A stretch of 64,000 nt of DNA. It comes from a phage. How positions within the stretch are numbered: the stretch's first letter is position 1; each line of letters starts with the position of its first letter. The notes beneath the pieces were generated by a model. That model made no database searches. It saw only the letters and a program-made list of their open reading frames with translations, and had not been told where the DNA came from. The stretch lies in sequence record PZ402301.1. The stretch is one strand, 5' to 3'. Shown here one piece after another: positions 54,744-61,529 of this stretch. Both the position numbers and the translations under genes were made by a program.

Positions 54744-55133
54744 TTAATCCAAAATATTATTAGGCATTGGTTGAACACTCGCAAGTTCTTTAAAGAACTC
54801 AGTAGAGTCAGGTAATTTAACCATTTCCGGAGCATGCTTACTAAATTTATGTTTGCAATGACGGCATTTATATTCAAGTTCCGGTTTACGCCAGTTAATC
54901 AATTGAACCTGTTCAGTACCGCATTCAGGACAATTAGGAACGTTTTTAGAAGCCCTTTCGCGACGTTCAACCATAGCCATAATAGCATCCCAGGCTGGAG
55001 GTTTAAAATCTAAATCGTCACAACCATGAATCTTTCCACGCATTTCTAAATCGTCTTCTTCACCAGCCATAATAATTTTAATTAGACTGGAATTACTTGA
55101 AGCTGCAATATCTTCTAATAGACGCTTTTTCAT
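54744..55133 (-). CDS. zinc-ribbon protein (129 aa)
   Basis: Two CxxC pairs (CPECG ... CRHCKH). Confidence 0.45.
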
Positions 55134-56059
55134 TTCAGTACCTCAATAGCATTACGTAAACCATTTGCTTTTGCATTAAGAGCTTTTAACAATTTAGTGT
55201 GTTCGGCAATTTGGGCTTCAACTTCAATCAAACGAGCATTGAGATATTCGCGTTCTTCGCTCAAGCTATCAACCTTTTCTACTTTAGGTTCTTTTACAAC
55301 TGGCTTATATGTATTAGGGTTCTTCAGTTTAATTAGAATACGTGAACTGTATAACATTGAACCATTATTTTCGATTTCGTCATACATTTCTACTACGTCC
55401 ATGATTTTTAACATCATGCGGAGTTTATAAGATAACGAACGAATAGTTTTGTTGTGCTTATTAATTTCTCTAGCTGTCATGGTGCCGAGATTACGTGAGT
55501 AATAATAAGGAACCTGGATATTAATTAATACTGATGAACCACCTGGCTTGTGTGTTACTTCATCAGCAATAACCCAGTCCTTAACATGAACTGTATTTGT
55601 ACGGTCATCGCCCGCGGTAAATAGTTTACGAGCATGCTTAAAAAGCATATTCACTTGGTCATTGAATTGACAAGCAAATTTATCAGCAAATTTAGTTTCA
55701 GGAATGGTAGATAACCAATCAGCCAAATGGGTCTTTTTAACATCGTTAACAATAGTAAATTCAACTAAATCGGTTATAGATGTCGTAGATTTAATGAAGC
55801 TCGGCTTCATAAAGTTTTCAATGTTATCACGAGCTACAGTAGAAGATAACATACGAGAACGTTTAAACCATTCAAGCAAATTGCCTAACGAATAAGAATA
55901 AGCGTTTTGAGTATCTTTACAGATATGATTTTCCTGGCCAACATATTGAAGGAAATCACGAAGAATATTATTGATTACTGCTCTGTGTCCGATCTGATAA
56001 TTACGGTGTTTAGTAATAAGACTGTCAAAATAATCAATATAATGTTTACGAGTTTTCAT
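55130..56059 (-). CDS. paralog family member 1 (309 aa), C-terminal coiled coil
   Basis: Starts MKTRK; ends in a heptad-like tail ([39 protein letters not shown]). Confidence 0.5.
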   Translation of the reverse strand: MKTRKHYIDYFDSLITKHRNYQIGHRAVINNILRDFLQYVGQENHICKDTQNAYSYSLGNLLEWFKRSRMLSSTVARDNIENFMKPSFIKSTTSITDLVEFTIVNDVKKTHLADWLSTIPETKFADKFACQFNDQVNMLFKHARKLFTAGDDRTNTVHVKDWVIADEVTHKPGGSSVLINIQVPYYYSRNLGTMTAREINKHNKTIRSLSYKLRMMLKIMDVVEMYDEIENNGSMLYSSRILIKLKNPNTYKPVVKEPKVEKVDSLSEEREYLNARLIEVEAQIAEHTKLLKALNAKANGLRNAIEVLK

Positions 56060-56111
56060 GTTCTTCTCACTTGGTTAATGATTTATACTCCGAGCCATCC
56101 TTGGCTTTAAA

Positions 56112-57114
56112 TTACTTAATTAACTGTAAAGCTTGTTCAAGACGATCCAGGCGATTAACAGATTCTTCCCAAATCCTTTTAGCCTGCTCATATTCTTTCT
56201 GCGCTTTATTAGAAATTTCTAGAACTTCTTTATAAGTCTTTTCTAGTGCAATAACTTCTGGACGAATTTCTACAGGTTCAGGCGAATCATCAAGATTATC
56301 CATTAGTTCCTCAAGTGTAATTTCTTCTTTAGGAGTATTCACAATTTCATCACATTTTTGTTGGTAAATTTCTTTATCAGTCGGTGAGTATGCACATTTC
56401 ACTTCACGAAGACTAACTACAATTTTATATCCTTCCCAACCGCATATATTCTTAAAAGGATACGTATGAATATTTTCTACTGTTTCCATACAAAGTAATG
56501 CGGTTTCTAATTGACGAGTTATAGTGCTAGCAATTGAGAAAAATTTATTAATGTTCTTTTGGTTAGTTTCTGGTGTAAAAAATCCATAATTCACAAAAAT
56601 AGATACTTTATTTTTATCAAGTTCATATTCTTTTATGATAATCATATCAGAAGCCAAAGGATGAATTTGACGATAATTGCCATAACATAATTTAGAAGCT
56701 GATTTTAGAATTTGCTTTTTGAAAAGTCTGAAATTACTAATCCAACGACGAGTAAAAATATTCTCAGGGTCTTCTTTATTATTAAGATGATAAGAATTAA
56801 CATCACCGAACCAATTATATCCTACTACATCTTTGGTTCGTTTAATTTCTTTCCCAAAATTACCAAGAATATCCCGATTAACCAAATATGAAAGAAGACG
56901 AGAACCTTTAAAGGTTTTCTTAATGTCATCTTTATCCGTACGACTAGAAATTTCACGAACTTCGTGAATAAATTTGCTGGAAGAAACAATGCTTACATCA
57001 ATATTATTGAGCCATCGATTGATAATGGAAATAACGATATTCTGACTAGTCATAGGTTTAACTTTATCATCAATAACGCTATTGAATGATTTGATATATT
57101 CGTTACGAGTCATA
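56112..57114 (-). CDS. paralog family member 2, C-terminal coiled coil
   Basis: Probable start MTRNEYIKSF (track ORF runs to 57164); tail KEYEQAKRIWEESVNRLDRLEQALQLIK. Confidence 0.5.
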
Positions 57115-57170
57115 TTAATCTCCTCAGTAGAAAGTAAGAACATTATACCACATCCTTGTGGCAAAGTAAA

Positions 57171-58199
57171 CTAGTTTAGTGCATTTAGTGCATTGTTCAG
57201 TTTAGAACGTTGCTTCGTGAGATTTTTGACTTTTTCTTGAGCTTTTTCTAGCATCTTTTCAGCTTCTAACACTTCATTAGTTGCTTTAACGAGTTCATCA
57301 TCTACTGCCTTGATAGACTTCTCAATCGCATCGGCATGCCATTTTTCAACAGGTTTAAGACTCGGATTTTCAACAGGAAGAAAATTCACTTTATTGAATT
57401 TCCATGCATCCTTATTACCTGAACTATACATCCAAAATTTAGGATCGTTTGATGAGTAATTGGATAAATTTAAATTTAAGTTATCTTGCACTTCCTGCTT
57501 TTTCTCTTGCGGGACTTCGTCCTTTCTCAAAAATTCATATTTAAATGAAACGATCATATCAAGTTCATATGTTGTTGTGTCTAATTTAAATCGTTCGAAA
57601 TGTTGTGAAATCTTAGACTGAACAGCAGCAACAACATCCATATACTTAAATGCTTCTGTCAACTGCGATTTAAGGCATTCGCAAATTGAAAGAGAATTTT
57701 TTGTATTAGGTTTAAAGCTAATTCGTGCAGTTCTGTTATTTTCTTTTAATGGTCTTACTTCCATCTGAAGAGTATAACCATCAAATTTCAGGTTCTTTAA
57801 GTTAATGTCAGAACCTTTTAATCGACTAGCCGTCGACAAAATTTGCTTTAATTGTCTACGGAACAGAGCAATAAATCTCCATTCAATACGATAATGATTT
57901 GGATTGAAAAATCCAGATGATAAATCGACCTTACTTTGACCAACGCCTTGAACAAATAGAGGATTTTTATAATCAATGGTTTTACAGAAATCGGTGAGTT
58001 GCTCACGAGCAGTCATTTGTGTAATATACCCCGCTTTACTAAAATGACGTAACCATTCACTGCTATTCGTATACTTAAAGTGATGAATAACACGATTAAC
58101 TTTATCAGGGTCTAAATTATTTTCACACAAAAATGTCATAACATCACGAGTATAGCTGGCGTTACGAACCATATCTTCAATTTGAGAACGAGTTTTCAT
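57171..58199 (-). CDS. paralog family member 3 (342 aa), C-terminal coiled coil
   Basis: Starts MKTRS; shares an MDVV block with member 1; tail EAEKMLEKAQEKVKNLTKQRSKLNNALNALN. Confidence 0.5.
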   Translation of the reverse strand: MKTRSQIEDMVRNASYTRDVMTFLCENNLDPDKVNRVIHHFKYTNSSEWLRHFSKAGYITQMTAREQLTDFCKTIDYKNPLFVQGVGQSKVDLSSGFFNPNHYRIEWRFIALFRRQLKQILSTASRLKGSDINLKNLKFDGYTLQMEVRPLKENNRTARISFKPNTKNSLSICECLKSQLTEAFKYMDVVAAVQSKISQHFERFKLDTTTYELDMIVSFKYEFLRKDEVPQEKKQEVQDNLNLNLSNYSSNDPKFWMYSSGNKDAWKFNKVNFLPVENPSLKPVEKWHADAIEKSIKAVDDELVKATNEVLEAEKMLEKAQEKVKNLTKQRSKLNNALNALN

Positions 58200-58207
58200 G
58201 GTGTTCC

Positions 58208-59134
58208 TTAAGATTTAAGTAAATCAACAATTTTAATTAACTTTTCACGCTCAGATTTAGCTTTACTACTCAATCCAGATAGTCTGAAAATTTCATCGTC
58301 ATATTGTTGAATAGAAATATTCAGCTCTTCAATCTGTTTATTAAAATAATCAATTTGTTCAGAATGTTTTTCGTTACTACGAACTGGTACAGGTTTTGTA
58401 GGCAATGTAGTTGAACTGGATTCATCCGGGCGATAAATTAAAATACAACTTGAACCAATAGGGCATTTTGCACCAGATGAATATTCTAATGTTCCAGCTT
58501 CTTTTAAAACTTCAAAAGCTAAACAGAGATGATGCCCCATATTAACATAATCTGTAGAGTGAGCTCTGATGTAATAATCATCGCCACGAATACTAAATTT
58601 AAAGCATTTAAGGTCTTCTGTATTATTGGTCTTAAAAATCATCTGTTTATCTAGACCTTTAGCTAATCGAGCGCCCAATGCTAATAATCGTCGCTGATTT
58701 TCCCACAAATCCGCAATCATTTGGTCGAATGATAATTTTGGCATTAGTCGACCATAAAGGTCATATCCTTTATTGTAATTACGAAGGATTTCACTCGCGT
58801 TAATACGAGACAATGCTCCAATTTTATTAAGGGCTTTCATAATGCGATTAGATAAACTCATTCCAGATCCATTTGTTCGCTGTAAATGTTTTTCTAATCC
58901 AAATCCAATATCAACTTTAAACTTATCTAAAATTTCTGCATGAACATCTCTGTCAATAACATTCAAATCCAAAGTTGGGTTAAATCTATGAAAAAACTTA
59001 TCTGGCTCTCCACGGCGAAATACAGTCCATTCATTCATCATTTTTTTATTAGCTAAAGATTTAATTACTGCATTGACATTATTAATTACTACTGACATAT
59101 TTTCCTCACTCAATTTCAATTTTACTAAATACAC
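58208..59134 (-). CDS. paralog family member 4 (308 aa), C-terminal coiled coil
   Basis: Similar size and layout; tail IEELNISIQQYDDEIFRLSGLSSKAKSEREKLIKIVDLLKS. Confidence 0.45.
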   Translation of the reverse strand: MYLVKLKLSEENMSVVINNVNAVIKSLANKKMMNEWTVFRRGEPDKFFHRFNPTLDLNVIDRDVHAEILDKFKVDIGFGLEKHLQRTNGSGMSLSNRIMKALNKIGALSRINASEILRNYNKGYDLYGRLMPKLSFDQMIADLWENQRRLLALGARLAKGLDKQMIFKTNNTEDLKCFKFSIRGDDYYIRAHSTDYVNMGHHLCLAFEVLKEAGTLEYSSGAKCPIGSSCILIYRPDESSSTTLPTKPVPVRSNEKHSEQIDYFNKQIEELNISIQQYDDEIFRLSGLSSKAKSEREKLIKIVDLLKS

Positions 59135-59568: not shown

Positions 59569-60096
59569 TTATGCGAGTACCGTCTTTAACCGTTCTTCAA
59601 ACTTCCGAAGAGTATTTTGGCGTTCAGCTCTTTGCTTTTTGTAAGTTTCAATACGCTCTGAAATGAGAGTGTATCGTTCATTTACTGATTCTTTCATAAA
59701 ATCAGGAATTTCACGAGAAGCTTTAATCTCGTCAAATTTATCAATAACAGCTTGCTCTTCAGCAATTAAGTTATCATACATTAAAATATCTTTCTTGATG
59801 AACTCAATATCTTCTTGAGTTACACGAGATAATTTAGATGCTTTATCCTTTTTGTACTGTTCGTTAGTATCACGAGACCAGTGTAATGTACGATTTTTAT
59901 TCGTATTTTTGTAAATTTCTACAATACCAATCTCATCAATAATAACGATCCAATTCCAACGGGATTTGTAAATTTGTCCTCCATCAACTGTGATTTCACC
60001 TCCGATTGAGATGTCGTTAAAGAACTTGCTTTGTGCTTCAGATTTAAATTTACCATCGTTGTAATTTACCAAGTTGAAAATATCTTTAGCGTTCAT
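59569..60096 (-). CDS. hypothetical protein with coiled-coil tail (175 aa)
   Basis: ATG preceded by GGAGGAACAGAAA; tail ERIETYKKQRAERQNTLRKFEERLKTVLA. Confidence 0.5.
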   Translation of the reverse strand: MNAKDIFNLVNYNDGKFKSEAQSKFFNDISIGGEITVDGGQIYKSRWNWIVIIDEIGIVEIYKNTNKNRTLHWSRDTNEQYKKDKASKLSRVTQEDIEFIKKDILMYDNLIAEEQAVIDKFDEIKASREIPDFMKESVNERYTLISERIETYKKQRAERQNTLRKFEERLKTVLA

Positions 60097-60560: not shown

Positions 60561-61529
60561 TTATTTCAGAAGAGTAACCTCAGCAATTTCTTCCCAACCG
60601 TTTTTGTCGGTCATAATAAAGTCAGCAAGATAAAGAGCAGTACGCAGTGAAACATTGCGTAAACGGTTAACATTAACTTTCATCCATGATAATGCTTTAT
60701 AAGTTTCTTCATCAGAAAGACCACGCTTTTGCATCATGTCAGTTGAAAGAATAACATCTTCAACCCTGACCATAATTTCTTCATTAGTGTGAACACCCAA
60801 ATCCAAATAAACCGAGCGGGACACTAATGCTTGTAAATGTGGAGCAAGTTTAGTACCACGGTCTAATTCGCGGTCAATGTCAACGTTTGTGATAAAAACA
60901 ATCGTTCCTTTAAATTCAAACTCACGGTCAATGCCTTTTTCTTCTAAGTAAGAAGATGCAGTGCTCCAGCAGACTTTACGGGTCTCTCCGGTGTCCAGAG
61001 CGGCTTTTAGAAGATTAAGAATGTCCATATCAGAGAAAACATCCACATCATCAATCAAAAGGACAGAATTCTCTTCACGATTATTCCAAAGCTGTTCATA
61101 AAGACCAATACCAGAGATTTTACCATTAATGCTTTTATATTCAATGTATCCAATATCATTTGCTTTATTTAAAGCTTTATCTAAAGAATACGTTTTACCA
61201 ATACCTGCTGCGCCAGAGATAATCAATGAACGAATATTTCCGTTAATAATACCATTCGTCATCATTCCCATAACATTAAATCTTTTATTAATGCGGGTTT
61301 TCATATCTTCATACGATTCTTTAACTTCTTCAACTTTTACACCATCATATGAAATATCTGATTTGTAAACCCAAACACCGCGACGTTTACCGTCAATTTC
61401 AACAAAAACTTTACCATCTCCTTGTGCATCTACCGGAGCATTATCTGGGAACCATTCGCCTAAGAGCTCAAAAGTTCCAGAGATTTCTTTACCGAAGTAG
61501 ATACCCTTATTGATAGTTACAGTTTTCAT
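60561..61529 (-). CDS. P-loop ATPase (AAA+-like)
   Basis: Walker A (GAAGIGKT) and Walker B (VLLIDDVDV); start taken at the ATG after GGAGAATAAA (track starts at an upstream TTG). Confidence 0.6.
   Translation of the reverse strand: MKTVTINKGIYFGKEISGTFELLGEWFPDNAPVDAQGDGKVFVEIDGKRRGVWVYKSDISYDGVKVEEVKESYEDMKTRINKRFNVMGMMTNGIINGNIRSLIISGAAGIGKTYSLDKALNKANDIGYIEYKSINGKISGIGLYEQLWNNREENSVLLIDDVDVFSDMDILNLLKAALDTGETRKVCWSTASSYLEEKGIDREFEFKGTIVFITNVDIDRELDRGTKLAPHLQALVSRSVYLDLGVHTNEEIMVRVEDVILSTDMMQKRGLSDEETYKALSWMKVNVNRLRNVSLRTALYLADFIMTDKNGWEEIAEVTLLK

Follow-up and report, generated by a model that had tools for sequence, protein, structure and literature searches.

The 64,000-nucleotide (nt) stretch of phage DNA analysed here (record PZ402301.1; referred to below as the window) carries at positions 55130-59134 four consecutive genes, all on the minus strand, and the question raised by this locus is whether they share an origin and what such an array does for the phage. 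A first-pass annotation, made from the sequence alone, had described them as a tandem array of divergent paralogs with coiled-coil tails, had likened the array to host-range, exclusion or anti-defence families, and had left undecided whether its members correspond to named T4 nrdC.x open reading frames (ORFs). They do: the four genes are nrdC.3 to nrdC.6 of a T4-like phage. Their common descent can be asserted with high confidence, and the array is probably an accessory counter-defence family of which one member, nrdC.5, has a published function.

The window is a Tequatrovirus (T4-like) genome. The 4-kb block matches many Tequatrovirus genomes at 96-97% DNA identity with 100% coverage, and in phage ime09 the equivalent genes are annotated as nrdC.3, nrdC.4, nrdC.5 and nrdC.6, between nrdC.2 and nrdC.7. 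By DNA identity and by this shared order, the array is the T4 nrdC.3-nrdC.6 gene set. Its members are as follows (lengths in amino acids, aa):

55130..56059, minus strand: nrdC.3, 309 aa, paralog A, PHROG 1435, newer Pfam family PF26897 (Phage_T4_Y04OP).
56112..57113, minus strand: nrdC.4, 333 aa from the ATG at 57113, paralog B, PHROG 1435, PF26897.
57171..58199, minus strand: nrdC.5, 342 aa, paralog C, DUF7235/PF23882, PHROG 2351; ortholog of the T4 anti-Dsr1 gene.
58208..59098, minus strand: nrdC.6, 296 aa from the ATG at 59098, paralog D, PHROG 2257, PF26899 (Phage_T4_Y05B).

The four ORFs are consecutive and co-oriented, as first annotated. The original range of 308-350 aa holds for the maximal ORFs (309, 350, 342 and 308 aa), but when starts are chosen by ribosome-binding sites the likely proteins measure 309, 333, 342 and 296 aa; the nrdC.4 ATG at 57113 has a GAGGAG Shine-Dalgarno sequence 7 nt upstream, and GAGG stands ahead of the nrdC.6 ATG at 59098. 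An MKTR or MTR start, again as described, is found in three proteins (nrdC.3 MKTRKHY, nrdC.4 MTRNEY, nrdC.5 MKTRSQ), and the N-terminus of nrdC.6 is MSVVINN.

The globular N-terminal domains are strongly diverged, as the first reading had it. Pairwise BLASTP links only nrdC.3 and nrdC.4 (E 8e-7, 26% identity over 226 aa), a relationship also seen between their family profiles by hhalign (98.2% probability, E 6e-14), and nrdC.3, nrdC.4 and nrdC.6 are all less than 25% identical to nrdC.5. For the more distant comparisons, profiles were built from family members and from the equivalent loci of other T4-like genera after removal of the last 65 residues of each sequence, which excludes a contribution of the helical tails to any match. 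These tail-less hhalign comparisons gave:

nrdC.3+4 against nrdC.5: 94.5% probability, E 7.6e-8, 176 columns, co-linear.
nrdC.6 (with PEi20 ORF-089 and fHe-Yen9-01 gp94) against nrdC.3+4+5 merged: 93.1%, E 3.1e-7, 108 columns.
nrdC.6 against nrdC.5 alone: 31%, E 5.1e-4, 60 columns in the same register.
nrdC.6 against nrdC.3+4 alone: 20%, E 1.1e-3, 71 columns in the same register.

Three unrelated control families from the same loci (nrdC.10, nrdC.11 and a 257-aa family) did not exceed 0.6% probability, nor did reversed profiles or 20 column-shuffled profiles, and all control E values were at least 0.1. The alignments share a helix with the motif K-x-[SG]-x-[LI]-[ST]-x3-A-x-[DE]-x-L-x2-[FY]-x-K, a glycine loop, and a long basic helix ending A-x-[RK]-L-x(1-2)-G.

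Structure prediction adds to this picture. The AlphaFold2 model of nrdC.6 (predicted local distance difference test score, pLDDT, 77.8; predicted template-modelling score, pTM, 0.65) was compared with BFVD by Foldseek and matched uncharacterised proteins of 300-335 aa from other Straboviridae genera with a probability of 1.0 and E values of 3e-7 to 3e-4, at modest TM-scores of 0.23-0.50. At the three loci examined, the matched genes (Mineola gp080, Acj61 p121 and fHe-Yen9-01 gp111) all lie in the nrdC.10-to-nrdC region, and by hidden Markov model (HMM) Mineola gp080 is a member of the nrdC.5 family. The nrdC.5 model itself was poor (pLDDT 43.8, from a shallow alignment of 8 sequences) and was for this reason left out of the fold searches; only its tail helix is usable, and the agreement in the order of secondary-structure elements between the nrdC.5 and nrdC.6 models has to be read with that low score in mind. 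Given the modest TM-scores and the poor nrdC.5 model, the fold argument is therefore supportive and not decisive. The body of these proteins, approximately 230-280 aa, is predicted to comprise N-terminal helices, a long basic helix, and two beta-hairpins flanking a helix. It is joined to the tail by a linker that is predicted to be flexible and is modelled with low confidence.

Taken together, the tail-less profile matches, the Foldseek match and the conserved gene order support tandem duplication followed by diversification, as originally proposed, and we regard the four-way paralogy of nrdC.3-nrdC.6 as established, with little doubt remaining. Profile similarity among the N-terminal domains and coiled-coil-like tails, whose joint absence the first-pass annotation had named as counter-evidence, were both found.

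In the databases these relationships are dispersed. Both nrdC.3 and nrdC.4 match phrog_1435 (E 1.1e-115 and 1.4e-164), and nrdC.4 homologs carry PF26897; nrdC.5 matches PF23882 over its full length (419.5 bits against a gathering cut-off of 30, E 1e-125); nrdC.6 matches phrog_2257 (E 1.5e-151), and its homologs carry PF26899. Since nrdC.3, nrdC.4 and nrdC.6 gave no match to the PF23882 (DUF7235) model, they are to be described as paralogs of nrdC.5 and not as DUF7235 members. Pfam and PHROGs thus keep the superfamily as three or more unlinked families, with only nrdC.3 and nrdC.4 already united. The nrdC.5 family is very narrow: an exhaustive profile search among 1.84 billion proteins returned 13 cluster representatives and no bridge to other families, with one repeat-protein false positive (P0237). 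A weak resemblance of nrdC.3 residues 30-86 to the integrase/XerD N-terminal SAM-like domain was seen in 1 of 24 family members only and was set aside as chance.

The tails were first annotated as heptad-like segments of 30-40 aa. They are real but longer, at 45-60 aa, and can be placed as follows:

55133..55276, minus strand: nrdC.3 helical tail, approximately residues 262-309, ending LRNAIEVLK.
56115..56258, minus strand: nrdC.4 helical tail, approximately residues 286-333, ending LEQALQLIK.
57174..57353, minus strand: nrdC.5 C-terminal helix, residues 283-342, ending LNNALNALN.
58211..58372, minus strand: nrdC.6 helix-turn-helix, residues 243-296, ending LIKIVDLLKS.

By a crude heptad score, heptad regularity stands out above shuffled sequences in three of the four tails (the score was reached by 3/200 shuffles for nrdC.3, 1/200 for nrdC.5 and 0/200 for nrdC.6) but not in that of nrdC.4 (21/200). 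In the AlphaFold2 models the nrdC.5 tail is a single 59-residue helix (residues 283-341, pLDDT 56-90), and that of nrdC.6 consists of two helices (243-272 and 278-295). The repeat-type ending noted at first pass can be written more exactly: all four proteins end in L-x-x-[AI]-[ILMV]-x-[ALV]-[LI]-[KN]. This pattern was derived after the fact from the four genes themselves; it is unique to them among the window's 149 ORFs of at least 60 aa, and it recurs in relatives that took no part in its derivation, namely the Mosigvirus copies, Mineola gp080, X20, PEi20 ORF-089, Acj61 p120 and the metagenomic protein P0229. In each family the tail is among the segments that are best conserved, along with the N-terminal ~30 aa of nrdC.3 and a block in the centre of nrdC.6. 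We take it to be a conserved C-terminal amphipathic helix common to all four, with the simplified ending L-x-x-A-h-x-x-L-K.

At one locus, flanked by nrdC.10 on one side and by nrdC.2/nrdC on the other, T4-like phages carry one to four copies of the family:

Tequatrovirus: four copies, in the order nrdC.6-nrdC.5-nrdC.4-nrdC.3.
Mosigvirus: three copies.
Nine other T4-like contigs (L011-L019), several matching Dhakavirus members: three copies.
Jiaodavirus, Winklervirus, Karamvirus and Kanagawavirus: one copy.
Tegunavirus: one copy by HMM (gp94), plus gp111 by fold match.
Acinetobacter phage Acj61: one copy by HMM (p120), plus p121 by fold match.

The order nrdC.6-nrdC.5-(nrdC.4)-(nrdC.3) is kept in three groups of genera, with a single copy elsewhere. 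Each paralog occurs in 554-742 phage records, nrdC.6 being the most widely retained (742). Within the genus, the ratio of non-synonymous to synonymous substitution rates (dN/dS) is approximately 0.1-0.4 for nrdC.3, nrdC.4 and nrdC.5 and 0.06-0.2 for nrdC.6, compared with 0-0.1 for nrdC, nrdC.8, nrdC.9 and nrdC.10; the four genes are real and under selection, yet they evolve faster than their neighbours. Within Tequatrovirus, nrdC.3 exists as two deeply diverged alleles (55130-56059 against L003 4501-5427, L008 and L009) with 61% aa identity and a dS of about 1. The first 30 and the last ~40 residues (271-309) of these alleles are 96-100% identical, and the centre is 36-56% identical, which looks like a cassette-like replacement of the body through recombination in the conserved ends.

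That this is a plastic phage region, as the first-pass annotation held, is borne out by incomplete coverage of the four-gene block (463 of 657 DNA-matching phage records cover at least 80% of it) and by deletions, fusions and one duplication. Salmonella phage Manna (L005 4215-5252, Manna_094) encodes an in-frame nrdC.6(1-270)::nrdC.4(251-333) hybrid, and P0056 is an nrdC.5(146-274)::nrdC.3(129-309) fusion protein. In ACG-C40 (L002 4805-5216) an out-of-frame nrdC.5/nrdC.3 deletion remnant is found and nrdC.6 is the only copy left; Shigella phage Sf25 (P0122) has an nrdC.6 in which residues 177-259 are duplicated; and at L010 9950-10982 nrdC.4 is split in two ORFs. An 803-bp metagenome contig (L026 120-641) encodes a 173-aa protein, P0231, in which an unrelated N-terminus of 120 aa with no PHROG match precedes a tail that is 100% identical to the nrdC.5 tail and is itself followed by the beginning of nrdC.4; judged from this single short contig, its origin may be a replacement of the body or a fusion by deletion. 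The Manna hybrid was considered as evidence for exchange at equivalent positions and rejected as such: its junction lies at a 9-nt microhomology, GATGAAATT, and it is found in 1 of 502 records only, so that it shows plasticity and nothing further. The four genes are dispensable, and often deleted or fused in nature.

With regard to function, the published evidence concerns nrdC.5. Srikant, Guegler and Laub (2022, eLife, PMC9391042) described a T4 clone with genome deletions that cannot plate on ECOR17 or on MG1655 carrying the ECOR17 dsr1 gene, and plasmid-borne T4 nrdC.5 restores its plating on dsr1 cells. That study handles nrdC.5 as a lone uncharacterised early gene, with no mechanism, no domain architecture and no paralogs reported. 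Dsr1, a Sir2 NADase, recognises the phage major capsid protein through a tetratricopeptide repeat (TPR) sensor, and relatives of this sensor occur in fusion with other effectors (PMC12803255). The window's nrdC.5 product is approximately 95% identical in aa sequence to that of T4. In the literature searched, nrdC.3 and nrdC.6 are not mentioned, and nrdC.4 appears only as a site of sequence difference in a genome announcement. The host-range, exclusion or anti-defence reading suggested at first pass is borne out for one member, nrdC.5, through its T4 ortholog; as nrdC.5 is published as blocking Dsr1, its three paralogs are good candidates for the same kind of job.

We consider it probable, if far from certain, that nrdC.3-nrdC.6 constitute a tandemly expanded and diversified accessory counter-defence family, in which a variable target-binding body is combined with an oligomerising tail. 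The four diverged copies go back to ancient tandem duplication of a single gene. In the mechanism that we propose, the variable body of each would bind and neutralise one particular host immune protein, that of nrdC.5 being the Sir2/TPR protein Dsr1, and the conserved tail would do a job common to all copies. The simplest such job would be self-association into a coiled-coil oligomer, which could raise avidity for oligomeric defence proteins. The anti-defence role of nrdC.3, nrdC.4 and nrdC.6, the direct binding to an immune protein and the role of the tail are thus what we infer from the family as a whole.

Several observations weigh against this proposal. The literature searched gives no experiment on nrdC.3, nrdC.4 or nrdC.6, and the action of nrdC.5 on Dsr1 could be by binding, as a decoy, or indirect. 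Searches returned no known domain, enzyme motif, fold or solved structure matching any of the four, and sequence searches against the PDB found nothing for these proteins. The link of nrdC.6 to the others depends on intermediate sequences and a merged profile, the direct single-family comparisons reaching 20-31%, and with the nrdC.5 model being poor, the common fold rests on the one good model, that of nrdC.6. The tail of nrdC.4 is not clearly heptad-regular (21/200 shuffles), and that of nrdC.6 folds back as a hairpin in its AlphaFold2 model. Finally, net purifying selection acts on each of the four genes (dN/dS below 1), and nrdC.6 comes close to its neighbours in conservation; the arms-race signal is for these reasons modest.

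One alternative would be that the four are not paralogs, but unrelated genes that acquired similar coiled-coil tails, or that their resemblance is low-complexity helical noise. In keeping with this, BLASTP sees the nrdC.3/nrdC.4 pair only, Pfam and PHROGs hold three separate families, and tail-less jackhmmer at an inclusion threshold of 1e-3 in one run drew in 78 reversed decoys. For the latter reason links from iterative searches were not used as evidence, hhalign with controls being used instead, and a jackhmmer merge of nrdC.3 with nrdC.5 in the local ORF database (E 5e-33) was discounted as probably an artefact of the natural chimeras P0056 and Manna_094, both of which were then removed. 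The matches at 93-95% over 108-176 co-linear columns were obtained without the tails, while no reversed, shuffled or unrelated control exceeded 0.6%; Foldseek ties nrdC.6 to an nrdC.5-family member; and length, layout, synteny and gene order are common to the four. Independent origins, or a chance resemblance, are accordingly very improbable. A reading of the four proteins as thioredoxin-like or as involved in nucleotide metabolism follows GenBank, where the product name 'thioredoxin' has spread to nrdC.1-nrdC.11-type genes in many phage records, and the four genes do lie near nrdC, nrdD and nrdG. However, searches of Pfam, NCBIfam and PDB found no thioredoxin or other redox domain in any of the four, and the label is a carry-over from the gene-name prefix of the neighbouring nrdC; this reading can practically be dismissed. 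A few records also carry the label 'Mur ligase domain-containing protein', and none of the four proteins has such a domain.

If paralogy is granted, it may still be that nrdC.5 alone evades immunity, the others serving a different early function that the phage can do without, for example in host takeover or in modulating a host or phage complex, with only the scaffold in common. The good conservation and wide retention of nrdC.6 (742 records, and the sole copy in ACG-C40), the purifying selection on all four and the silence of the literature searched on data for nrdC.3, nrdC.4 and nrdC.6 agree with such a division. On the other hand, by analogy with established examples, when a counter-defence protein has paralogs within a plastic accessory region, these would usually be expected to retain the class of function; the genes are often lost in natural isolates; and the deep allelic replacement in nrdC.3 is limited to the central body, which fits changing targets. 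We judge this division of labour unlikely, though worth keeping in view. The tail, too, could be read differently. It may be a docking peptide for a common partner (the TPR groove of Dsr1/Avs7-class sensors, or a host or phage machine) and not an oligomeriser, with the body giving specificity or blocking the effector. The terminal motif is kept across paralogs whose bodies are less than 20% identical, the Dsr1 sensor is made of TPR repeats and has relatives fused to many effectors (PMC12803255), and natural proteins exist that retain the tail with an exchanged body (Manna_094 and P0231). However, a heptad-like helix of 45-60 aa is more typical of self-association, Manna_094 arose at a 9-nt microhomology and occurs in 1 of 502 records, and P0231 is known from one contig of 803 bp; a docking role appears rather improbable. 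As a doubtful extension, the helix could be a shared 'warhead' or assembly element, which would either bring the four paralogs together in mixed oligomers with several target-binding bodies on each, acting as a multi-specific anti-defence particle, or plug Dsr1/Avs7-class TPR sensors; were the plug version true, the family would be one of diversified inhibitors of capsid-sensing immune receptors fused to different effectors. The counter-defence family with an oligomerising tail remains the reading that we prefer.

Several further features were observed within and around the array. One promoter-like site lies between two of its genes:

57142..57170, minus strand: sigma-70-type promoter-like site (TTTACT-17-TATAAT, with TG) in the nrdC.5/nrdC.4 interval; a consensus match only.

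It stands ahead of the GAGGAG sequence and the ATG at 57113 of nrdC.4. Promoter-like sites across the region are no commoner than in shuffled sequences. Many database records start nrdC.4 at 343 or 350 aa; these starts are probably wrong, as they lie inside or upstream of the promoter-like site (57113-57170, minus strand). In the nrdC.4-nrdC.3 spacer, approximately 20 nt upstream of the nrdC.3 start, the minus strand reads TATAAAT at 56081-56087, which fits 7 of 8 positions of the consensus for T4 late promoters, TATAAATA. The small gene on the immediate downstream side of the array, nrdC.2 (54744-55133), is unusually variable too, with 63-98% identity among Tequatrovirus genomes, sometimes over part of the gene, and a dN/dS of up to 0.37. 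On the other side, nrdC.8 (59569-60096) has a charged helical tail and was considered as a fifth member; it was rejected, having neither the terminal motif nor a match to any family HMM. Farther upstream, nrdC.10 (60561-61529) is a very conserved anchor. It can be detected in 1312 phage records, among them those of Vibrio, Aeromonas, Acinetobacter and jumbo phages, and in 455 records the identity is 99% or more, in sharp contrast with the adjoining array. Where a genus has one family member only, an unrelated gene of 256-272 aa, well conserved and of unknown function, lies nearby (L023 11683-12456, L020 12227-13045, L022 12190-12993, L025 10660-11430 and L006 11845-12636); four of the five genera have it immediately upstream of the family member. 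This gene carries no helical tail and does not match the family.

No lytic phage has been studied better than T4, and still the majority of the genes in its plastic regions are without known function. If nrdC.5, as a validated inhibitor of the immune protein Dsr1, is one of four tandem paralogs of common architecture, three more T4 genes become specific counter-defence candidates, together with a locus present across Straboviridae in one to four copies; the protein can be dissected, its variable body being separable from its conserved tail; and a merger of three or more Pfam families and of seven PHROGs becomes possible. The array would also illustrate how one inhibitor scaffold is expanded and diversified in a phage by tandem duplication, and how array deletions narrow host range. 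It is not a new kind of system, since these are long-annotated T4 ORFs, one of them with a published function. What appears undocumented is the joining of three database families in one superfamily, the common terminal motif, and the copy-number pattern across Straboviridae.

The closest known system is T4 NrdC.5 itself, of which the window gene at 57171-58199 is the ortholog (same position, ~95% aa identity, DUF7235 score far above threshold); the window's nrdC.3, nrdC.4 and nrdC.6 are remote paralogs of it, with less than 25% identity and scores below the DUF7235 threshold. The four proteins and their relatives from other genera are contained in PF26897, PF23882 and PF26899 and in PHROGs 1435, 2351, 2257, 26858, 23608, 25705 and 26189, families which, apart from the union of nrdC.3 with nrdC.4, are separate and of unknown function, and which are here joined through one superfamily with a common tail motif. 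DSAD1 of SPbeta-type phage, which inhibits the Sir2 defence protein DSR2, is likewise a phage protein that disables a Sir2-domain, NAD-depleting defence, and it is reported to act by binding the sensor region; no similarity in sequence or fold places the present proteins with DSAD1. A design analogy is offered by the T4 internal proteins IPI, IPII and IPIII, an accessory set in which a short common module, a capsid-targeting sequence, is combined with different bodies, and of which IPI and IPIII act against host defences. Their common module is an N-terminal packaging signal, whereas that of nrdC.3-nrdC.6 is a C-terminal helix; no sequence relationship between the two sets was seen, and nothing points to packaging of nrdC.3-nrdC.6. 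Finally, the T4 dmd-tifA-adfA 'anti-TA island' is also a counter-defence gene cluster in a plastic T4 region, but its genes are small and mutually unrelated, whereas nrdC.3-nrdC.6 are one family, which grew by tandem duplication.

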